This document shows, one piece after another, positions 46,741-47,049 of a stretch of 64,000 bases of DNA (within the stretch, counting starts at the first letter, position 1; each line of letters begins with the position of its first letter). Both the position numbers and the translations under genes were made by a program. The stretch lies in contig DYGE01000004.1 of the NCBI GenBank assembly GCA_020724845.1, positions 29,751 to 93,750 of the forward strand, written 5' to 3'. Origin of the DNA: Candidatus Paceibacter sp. Lineage in GTDB: Bacteria; Patescibacteriota; Minisyncoccia; UBA6257; 02-FULL-45-10c. The notes under the pieces were generated by a model. The model saw nothing but the letters and a program-made list of their open reading frames with translations, was not told the DNA's origin and ran no database searches.

Positions 46741-46767
46741 AAAAACCGCCAAAATTGCGGTTTTTTA
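46741..46767. terminator. bidirectional intrinsic terminator
   Basis: AAAAA-CCGCCAAAATTGCGG-TTTTTT. Confidence 0.6.
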
Positions 46768-46789
46768 ATTTGTCGGGCTGCTGGGAATC

Positions 46790-46947
46790 CGTCCGCCAAT
46801 CAGCGGACTAGAACCCTCGGCCCGATAAATATCGGGCCTCTTTGAAACCTATCGGTTTCAACGGCTGCCCCCGGCAGCCTGCATCCACAACGGGAAAACT
46901 ACCGTTTTCCCGACCCCTTTCCCGGGTTCGATTCCCGGAGGAAATTA
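46790..46947. other. about 158-nt highly structured non-coding element with tRNA-like T-arm, flanked by duplicated tRNA-Pro 3' end
   Basis: Series of perfect hairpins (6, 9, 8, 7 and 9 bp) plus plus-strand CCGGG-TTCGATT-CCCGG; see findings. Confidence 0.4.
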
Positions 46948-46975
46948 AAAACTGCCATAATCGGCAGTTTTTAAT
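46948..46975. terminator. bidirectional intrinsic terminator
   Basis: AAAAA-CTGCCATAATCGGCAG-TTTTT; compensatory variant of the 46741 terminator. Confidence 0.6.
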
Positions 46976-46978
46976 TTG

Positions 46979-47049
46979 TCGGGCTGCTGGGAATCGAACC
47001 CAGTCCTCACGCACCCGAAGCGTGTATACTACCACCATACTCCAGCCCG
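46979..47049 (-). tRNA. tRNA-Pro (anticodon CGG)
   Basis: Manual fold: C1:G72 acceptor CGGGCTG/CAGCCCG, anticodon loop TTCGGGT, T-loop TTCGATT. Confidence 0.7.

Follow-up and report, generated by a model that had tools for sequence, protein, structure and literature searches.

The T-loop of transfer RNA (tRNA) genes is a canonical integrase site, the other canonical sublocations being the anticodon loop and the 3' end; Williams reportedly distinguished, in 2002, T-loop and anticodon-loop crossover classes of tRNA integration. Integron attC sites, attP(+) of the CTX phage and other elements exploiting Xer integrate as folded single strands. A regenerated tRNA together with a displaced fragment at the element ends is the established signature of tRNA-integrating elements (PMC4383910; bioRxiv 10.1101/2020.12.28.424599). 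Here we describe a locus with such a layout, formed by tRNA-Pro(CGG) and the adjacent block 46790–46967, in a 64-kb stretch of contig DYGE01000004.1 of Candidatus Paceibacter sp.; this whole stretch is called the window below, and the contigs and loci fetched for comparison with it are labelled L001–L057. The block is probably, though by no means certainly, a non-autonomous insertion element of about 180 bp (type A), belonging to a family that targets tRNA T-loops in Harrisonbacteria-like bacteria of the Candidate Phyla Radiation (CPR). The family is small and apparently undescribed, as no described equivalent was found in a literature search that was not exhaustive. It occurs at three different tRNAs, with empty sites in relatives, repeats of which the far one is the original 3' end, and hairpins retained by compensatory changes. 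The anatomy and evolutionary behaviour of the element are well supported; its insertion route, and whether it acts as DNA or as RNA, we infer.

The tRNA-Pro(CGG) gene on the minus strand (46978–47049; ARAGORN and Rfam, 52.6 bits) is intact and does not encode CCA. A block of 28 nucleotides (nt), TTTTTAATTTGTCGGGCTGCTGGGAATC, is present in two exact copies, at 46762–46789 and 46968–46995, and nowhere else in the window (blastn-short, E 2.8e-10); the initial annotation of this DNA had noticed the pair and placed the second copy one base too high. In tRNA terms, the repeat extends on the minus strand from T-loop position 57 to C74 and covers 10 nt of the trailer, while looser similarity around it, terminators included, reaches 49 nt (86%). 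The near (proximal) copy, 46968–46995, is the working 3' end of tRNA-Pro, and its 10-nt trailer doubles as the T-tract arm of the adjacent terminator. The far (distal) copy, in which tRNA positions 57–74 lie at 46772–46789, is the displaced original 3' end of the same gene.

Each copy is associated with a Rho-independent terminator, that is, a GC-containing hairpin with a T run on both strands. Terminator 1 (AAAAAACCGC-CAAAATT-GCGGTTTTTT, 46740–46766), identified by a perfect-stem search and a terminator scan, is native: it serves the convergent permease-Usp gene (stop at 46722) and once served tRNA-Pro. The tRNA-Pro trailer and terminator 1 are similar to the native tRNA-Pro flank of L010. 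Terminator 2 (46942–46977) has a 15-bp perfect stem, AAATTAAAAACTGCC/GGCAGTTTTTAATTT, with A and T tracts, and begins 1 nt past C74 of tRNA-Pro; its position is homologous in all six members of the family, the stems being different. Both bidirectional terminators had been recognised in the initial annotation, but the first stem is CCGC/GCGG rather than CCGCC/GGCGG, and the two stems, AAAAAACCGC/GCGGTTTTTT cores against 15 bp, do not form the simple compensatory pair that had been proposed.

The element proper, 46790–46967, is 178 nt long and contains no open reading frame (ORF). At its far end, hairpin 1 (hp1; GTCCGC-CAATCA-GCGGAC, 46791–46808) is situated at the T-loop junction and, by separating positions 56 and 57, splits the far T-arm. 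The 5' half of this split T-arm, denoted T3 (TAGAACCCTC, or GAGGGTTCTA in the tRNA sense; 46809–46818), consists of the T-stem 5' strand and TTC and is conserved in L013 and in the type B elements considered below; its GAGGG is complementary to the tRNA-Arg T-stem CCCTC and not to that of tRNA-Pro. It is followed by the perfect cargo hairpins hp2 (GGCCCGAT/ATCGGGCC, 46819–46838), hp3 (TTGAAACC/GGTTTCAA, 46842–46861) and hp4 (GGCTGCC/GGCAGCC, 46863–46879), and by hp5 (CGGGAAAAC-TACC-GTTTTCCCG, 46891–46912), also perfect, which together with the linker ACCCCTTTCCC spans 46891–46923 and forms the best-conserved portion of type A. All five hairpins had been listed as perfect in the initial annotation, and so they are. 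Finally, the T2 box on the plus strand, CCGGG-TTCGATT-CCCGG (46922–46938), repeats the core of the tRNA's T-arm in inverted orientation. The element ends, CTGCC... and ...GGCGGACG, are not inverted repeats.

No second cluster of such hairpins exists in the 64 kb, where perfect stems of at least 7 bp otherwise occur about once per kb. The plus strand of the 159-nt block 46790–46948 folds at −74.6 kcal/mol, compared to −43.6 ± 3.4 kcal/mol in shuffled sequences (z = −9.2, 0 of 200 shuffles), and the minus strand at z = −5.7.

The type A homolog was identified by blastn among the fetched loci: L013 5991–5810 matches window positions 46790–46951 at 72% identity over 182 nt (E 2.5e-25). This copy adjoins tRNA-Arg(TCG), not tRNA-Pro, and is bordered on both sides by GATTCCCTCCGAGGGCAC, the 3' end of that tRNA; the junction is the same as in the window (...GGACG|GATTCC against GGTTC|GATTCC in the tRNA). 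Every tRNA was scanned for downstream copies of its own 3' end, and among 41 non-redundant tRNA loci six full copies, two of type A and four of type B, were found in five genomes. One of the type B copies is in the window itself, on the plus strand at 49446–49660, downstream of tRNA-Arg(TCG) (49390–49462). Its element occupies 49463–49639, its 21-nt direct repeat AATCCCTCCGAGGACACAAAA lies at 49446–49466 and 49640–49660, and its interior comprises a terminator, an anti-T box, an 11-bp stem GCCGCACCCCG/CGGGGTGCGGC, the GGAAAACC hairpin and a hairpin-split T-arm. Its far terminator is common with the convergent tRNA-Lys(CTT). Apart from this diverged copy, blastn-short and nhmmer found no other copies within the window. 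The remaining type B copies follow tRNA-Arg(TCG) in L008 and L010, and tRNA-Ala(CGC) in L020. A degenerate type B remnant is seen after tRNA-Pro(GGG) in L007, and a minimal version after tRNA-Arg in L024.

All copies share one layout, which in the tRNA sense reads as terminator, anti-T box, GGAAAAC and further hairpins, T-arm 5' half, and junction hairpin. In all six the terminator starts directly after C74, the anti-T box is 45–55 nt and the far repeat 178–208 nt past the tRNA end. Both types have the GGAAAAC/GTTTTCC hairpin followed by CCTTTCC, the T box, a (TA/C)GAACCC box and the hairpin splitting the far T-arm. The repeat starts at T-loop position 57 or 58 in each copy and ends at C74 plus a variable A-rich trailer, its lengths being 17, 18, 18(+4), 21, 23 and 28 nt. 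Both junctions fall in sequences that every tRNA locus of these genomes has. In five of the six copies the far repeat matches the tRNA at 100%; in L020 it differs at three positions. GAGGG in the T-arm 5' half perfectly complements the tRNA-Arg T-stem CCCTC in both types, and since it does so even at the Pro and Ala sites, this suggests that the family may have arisen at a tRNA-Arg locus. As for the tRNA genes of the window in general, most have the discriminator and C followed by an A-rich trailer that already forms the left arm of a terminator. Only some of them (Leu-TAA, Cys) encode CCA, and orthologous tRNAs vary between genomes in this respect.

The tRNA-Pro(CGG) site is empty in all relatives examined, namely L003, L010, L013, L015–L020, L024 and L055. 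[quoted passage not shown] Because the site is empty in relatives, the unit of about 206 nt at tRNA-Pro is an insertion in the window's lineage.

The two repeats are of different age. The far copies in L013, L008 and L020 end in ...CACCA, with an encoded CCA, and continue into a flank resembling that of an unoccupied tRNA-Arg gene (CCATTAC in L008, CCATTAA in L020), whereas the near copies in these genomes have no CCA and continue into the conserved AAAT(A/T)AAA of the element and its terminator. Moreover, the far copy in L020 carries the T-stem CCGGT, which has disappeared from its own tRNA and is still present in tRNA-Ala of the window. Given the encoded CCA, the native-like flanks and the older T-stem, the far copy is the original chromosomal end, and the near copy came with the insertion or was made by it. 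A reverse-transcription origin of the far repeat, considered for the three far copies with CCA, was rejected, as the orthologous tRNA genes of relatives encode CCA and have the same flank. A tRNA primer site of the retroelement primer-binding kind was also rejected, as the far copy in the window runs on into the trailer of the gene and not into CCA.

The initial annotation had proposed to look for covariation across relatives; among the copies of the element, the stems of both types do show compensatory changes. In type B (four sequences) 95.5% of cells are paired, and 13 pairs are changed on both sides, compared to 5.9 ± 1.6 in shuffles (0 of 500) and 0–3 with slid partners. In type A, represented by two sequences only, 100% are paired and nine pairs are changed on both sides. 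In particular, relative to L013, hp1 has one compensatory pair (GTCCGA/TCGGAC), hp2 and hp3 have compensatory changes and hp4 differs in length. Sequence itself is conserved in the linkers, in hp5 with its flank, and in the invariant 11-bp type B stem and the stretches flanking it. As nearly all pairs are Watson–Crick, either strand can form the hairpins equally; only on the plus strand do the G.U pair in hp3 of L013 and the U.G pairs in L008 work. The comparison of G.U with A.C involves few cases, its counts are biased by the structure prediction method, and it leaves the strand of function undecided.

In the minimum-energy folds the T2 box pairs with GGGAATC..hp1..GAACCC (46783–46816) and closes the multi-hairpin domain, so that it can be modelled as one strand of a closing helix. 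This T2:T3 pairing is without positive covariation and has an A.C mismatch in L020. The T box of type B has almost no stem of its own, and the box stem is poor in most members of the family. In all six, the loop of the T box equals the T-loop variant of the neighbouring tRNA: TTCGATT in four cases, TTCGAAT at tRNA-Arg of the window and TCCGATT at tRNA-Ala of L020, where the split T-arm, unlike the T box, retains TTCG. The plus-strand T-arm of the initial annotation exists as a box, but a tRNA-like 3' end is not supported, given the poor stem in most members, the copying of the neighbour's T-loop and the complementarity to the split T-arm. In L020, from Harrisonbacteria, both tRNA-Ala (5371–5442) and tRNA-Arg (14022–14096) have the T-loop TCCGATT, with C at position 55, while tRNA-Pro and tRNA-Lys retain TTCGA; the T box beside tRNA-Ala shares the TCCGATT change.

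Taken together, the T-arm of the tRNA, terminator 2 and the T box make one long imperfect palindrome. The whole contig L057 is a perfect foldback about the tRNA-Arg terminator (centre at 5383–5424), most likely an assembly or amplification artefact at a palindrome, and the Logan contig L001 ends inside hp5, which may point to further copies that have the conserved 30-mer. Such blocks break assemblies and may be taken for tRNA fragments or novel small RNAs; at the same time, they preserve the history of tRNA 3' ends, such as the loss of the encoded CCA.

No Rfam family accounts for the block. It was suspected from the start not to be a tRNA, and indeed nothing in 46740–46977 scores against the tRNA model (RF00005), pseudogenes included, even at E ≤ 10, the only call by ARAGORN and Rfam being 46978–47049. 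The absence of a transfer-messenger RNA (tmRNA) or signal recognition particle (SRP) RNA was likewise borne out: ARAGORN finds no tmRNA, standard or permuted, and the tmRNA_permuted model gives 13.2 bits with the gathering score of 47. With Rfam 15, at gathering and E-value thresholds, neither type has a non-tRNA match near threshold; SRP, 6S, RNase P, Y RNA, T-box and omegaRNA-like families are among those not matched. As a candidate acceptor 5' strand for a mini-helix we considered CGGGCCG in hp2, which pairs with CAGCCCG at six of seven positions, and rejected it as not conserved in L013.

We suggest the following scheme for the putative insertion element. It would insert into the T-loop of a tRNA gene between positions 56 and 57/58, leaving the tRNA intact, with a new copy of positions 57–74 followed by the bidirectional terminator of the element. 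The original 3' part, with its native trailer and terminator, would be pushed some 180–210 bp downstream, yielding the 28-nt repeat in the case of tRNA-Pro. Mobilisation in trans would rely on an enzyme whose gene lies elsewhere in the genome, most likely through integrase-like site-specific recombination at the T-loop via a folded single strand. In this fold, pairing between the anti-T box and the split T-arm would restore a copy of the target site. An alternative is that the insertion step itself duplicates the target from the T-loop to the tRNA end. The repeat, which reaches from the T-loop to C74 and takes in a variable A-rich stretch, fits such a target-copying step, by staggered cuts or by template switching, and since related copies carry ends of different tRNAs, this step fits better than the plain integrase model. 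Finally, there is a more far-reaching possibility, which we consider rather unlikely, that these elements represent a structure-dependent mobile class without a protein gene. In that case tRNA genes would be recognised by the built-in T-arm mimic via a folded single-stranded att site, or by a flank-derived guide on the plus strand, and insertion into the T-loop would copy the 3' end of the target; because of this copying the essential tRNA would never be lost.

Several observations weigh against the insertion element. No integrase, transposase, recombinase, reverse transcriptase or Cas protein is encoded by the 43 ORFs of at least 150 amino acids in the window, and the element itself has none. 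No relative of it was found by blastn in phage and plasmid collections. [quoted passage not shown] The 24 hits were rejected, as only 20–28 nt matched around a 16-mer, which is near a rough, uncomputed chance estimate for so large a collection. As there is neither a recombinase gene in the window nor a relative in the collections, the element would be non-autonomous, if mobile at all. Further, neither a circular form nor, within a population, a polymorphism of occupied and empty sites was seen, and only six copies, in five genomes, are known. The integrase model requires the element to carry the right tRNA 3' end beforehand, and yet the type A copies, 72% identical, have Pro and Arg ends, and the type B copies have Arg and Ala ends. 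The identity block begins in the middle of the T-loop (G57/A58), not at the symmetric T-stem/T-loop core. At the same site in the window and L010, the type B repeats differ at three of 17 positions, each being perfect to its own tRNA. For the repeat to be identical in five of the six copies, recent re-insertion, gene conversion or selection is required. Selection of this kind could come about if each copy acts as tRNA end in one of two states, or if a plus-strand RNA has to pair with the tRNA.

We rank the trans-mobilised T-loop insertion element first, a functional antisense or guide-like RNA second and passive copying by template switching third. The second of these, a small RNA gene on the plus strand, antisense to the tRNA, which acts as a tRNA-directed antisense, sensor or guide RNA and has spread by duplication, seems unlikely to us. 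Its 5' end would be complementary to positions 57–74 of the tRNA or pre-tRNA and the trailer, and beyond hp1 to positions 49–56, the remainder being a multi-hairpin scaffold, a T-arm mimic masking the antisense part, and the terminator. The observed order of a target-matching 5' segment, scaffold and Rho-independent terminator agrees with this description, as do the compensatory changes in the hairpins combined with sequence conservation of the linkers. The far repeat, identical to the tRNA in five of six copies and changing together with it between the window and L010, also agrees, but in L020 it has drifted from the tRNA at three positions. Similarly, the L013 G.U pair and the L008 U.G pairs favour the plus strand, but almost all other pairs, being Watson–Crick, are compatible with either. 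A promoter-like TTGGCG-17-TGTAAT ends just before the repeat in L008, whereas a promoter scan upstream of the block in the window yielded no promoter-like site. No partner gene (Cas, IscB, TnpB or reverse transcriptase) is present in the window, and no Rfam family is matched. Besides, this explanation does not by itself account for the re-matching of the 5' segment at each new tRNA. In passive copying, rare template switches during replication, at the microhomologies of C74 with the A-rich trailer and of the T-loop GATTCC, which all tRNA loci share, would carry the cargo between tRNA loci without dedicated machinery. Positions 57–74 would then be duplicated automatically, and the hairpins would be kept by template-directed correction of quasi-palindromes, not by selection. 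It is in line with the constant extent of the repeat (T-loop 57/58 to C74 plus a variable A-rich trailer, 17–28 nt), with both junctions lying in sequences common to all tRNA loci, with the perfect match of the tRNA end at three different tRNAs without specificity borne by the element, with the lack of a recombinase gene in the window and with stems that are perfect Watson–Crick on both strands. Still, accidents of this kind would have to happen repeatedly, at no fewer than three tRNA types in five genomes, with the same orientation and geometry, and the sequence conservation of the linkers and of the invariant 11-bp stem with its flanks implies selection; we regard this explanation as improbable.

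The initial annotation had also offered a tRNA-derived mobile or integration scar and a decayed tRNA paralog. The mobile or integration part of the former holds, as homologous blocks are found at different tRNAs, each with its own 3'-end repeat, and the tRNA-Pro site is empty in relatives. The random one-off scar is not supported, the block being a conserved unit (about 180 nt) in which compensatory changes maintain the hairpins. A complete lambda-type attP with both arms is in the range of about 180–240 bp. The size of the block would suit the scar of a large prophage or genomic island at tRNA-Pro whose interior has been lost and of which only the two att arms are left. A regenerated tRNA with a displaced fragment is the island signature (PMC4383910). 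However, independent deletions would not yield the same hairpin unit, about 180 nt long, at the Pro, Arg and Ala loci of five genomes, and no island genes or integrase remnants are found near the tRNA-Pro block, making the scar very improbable. Decay of a tandem tRNA paralog, for example tRNA-Pro(TGG) or tRNA-Arg(TCT) turned into hairpins, has in its favour the tandem tRNA-Pro(CGG)–tRNA-Pro(TGG)–tRNA-Arg(TCT) at this site in L003 and the T-arm-like pieces in the block, with GAGGG fitting the tRNA-Arg T-stem. But the tRNA-like parts are limited to the 18-nt repeat and the short T-arm 5' half, the block does not align to either of the two L003 tRNAs in question, its homolog in L013 is at a different locus, the far repeat is identical to tRNA-Pro(CGG) and not to another isoacceptor, and the T-arm box has the opposite orientation. 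This origin is hardly credible.

Footprints of the classic kind occur at other tRNA loci. A displaced 3' half of tRNA-Ala lies on the minus strand of the window at 42301–42342, 25 nt downstream of tRNA-Ala(CGC) (42368–42439). It begins within the anticodon loop, differs in its T-stem, encodes CCA and is conserved in L024; this is a classic footprint of integration at the anticodon loop, with next to nothing remaining between the copies. In relatives (L054 9846–9990, L007 1180–1300, L013 2833–2955, L006 114–260) 15–16-nt inverted repeats GTCCCGTTAGAA(A/G)TT bracket an intact tRNA-Pro(CGG), which lies within the anticodon loop of another tRNA-Pro gene. This second gene is split, and the acceptor strands of its outer halves match. 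The arrangement resembles a cassette that carries a tRNA and both interrupts and replaces the resident one; it is absent from the window. We count these footprints, the tRNA-Ala half and the tRNA-Pro cassettes, as support for insertion. Dead tRNA-Pro halves in L007 (about 1330–1470) and L054 (about 9530–9800) contain insertions resembling MITEs (miniature inverted-repeat transposable elements), with terminal inverted repeats of about 15–21 nt (CCCACACACTAACTTTGCCAT; GGACCTTATTTTAAT).

The genes around the tRNA-Pro locus encode an amino-acid permease–Usp fusion, a CDP-alcohol phosphatidyltransferase, the CCA-adding enzyme and RecG. The nearest named relatives are Candidatus Harrisonbacteria (CPR/Patescibacteria), with 62–73% protein identity, and the window sequence is also present in the JGI metagenome 3300029893 and in SRR5011275. 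Elsewhere in the window, the 23S ribosomal RNA (rRNA) at 28448–31792 matches its 2925-nt model over 3178 nt, implying insertions. The 5S gene adjoins it, but with no 16S in the 64 kb the rRNA operon is unlinked or split, a state often reported from CPR bacteria. Three paralogs of the Pup-ligase family beside an AAA ATPase (6806–13642) form a pupylation-like gene cluster in a CPR genome.

Among known systems, the element shares several features with islands, prophages and tycheposons integrated into tRNA genes by tyrosine integrases. As in these, a new 3' part restores the split tRNA, the far end is marked by a direct repeat consisting of the displaced original fragment, which is the Islander criterion, the junction is in the T-loop, and the insert is absent from the orthologous site of relatives. 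Islands also push older fragments further downstream, as seen in this lineage at tRNA-Ala of the window and in L024. Unlike islands, the element is about 180 bp long and has no gene, with no integrase inside or nearby, which Islander also looks for; its hairpins are kept by compensatory change, implying a folded single strand; its closely related copies carry 3' ends of different tRNAs; and its identity block starts in the middle of the T-loop, with a hairpin exactly at the junction. The plus strand resembles the omegaRNA of IscB and the reRNA of TnpB in having a flank-derived matching segment, a scaffold of about 150 nt and a terminator. However, no IscB, TnpB or Cas effector gene is present in the window and Rfam yields no match, so the block does not qualify as a guide RNA of these systems, which, moreover, make no target repeat.

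MITEs and REP/PATE-type elements are, like this one, small, non-coding, rich in hairpins, present in multiple copies and dependent on an enzyme acting in trans. But MITEs have terminal inverted repeats and a short fixed duplication, in place of which the element has a repeat of variable length (17–28 nt), and, in contrast to both groups, it has a strict target in the tRNA T-loop, brings a terminator and leaves the tRNA intact. With attC and the CTX attP(+) it has in common two inverted site-like boxes, here the T2 box and the split T-arm about 110 nt apart, the lack of its own recombinase, and a structure conserved more than the sequence; in the modelled fold, pairing of the boxes would rebuild a duplex target site in which hp1 protrudes at the exchange point as an extra-helical insertion. 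It differs from them in that the target is the tRNA T-loop and not attI or dif, and in the target repeat of 17–28 nt, which those systems do not make. If truly mobile, it would be a possible case of target choice directed by a folded single strand or by RNA, and a rare mobile element of the gene-poor CPR bacteria. Known occupants of tRNA genes are kilobase-sized and carry genes, whereas here about 180 bp without a gene always restore the tRNA and supply a terminator; provided that the mobility is real, this would be the smallest tRNA-targeting element known to us.

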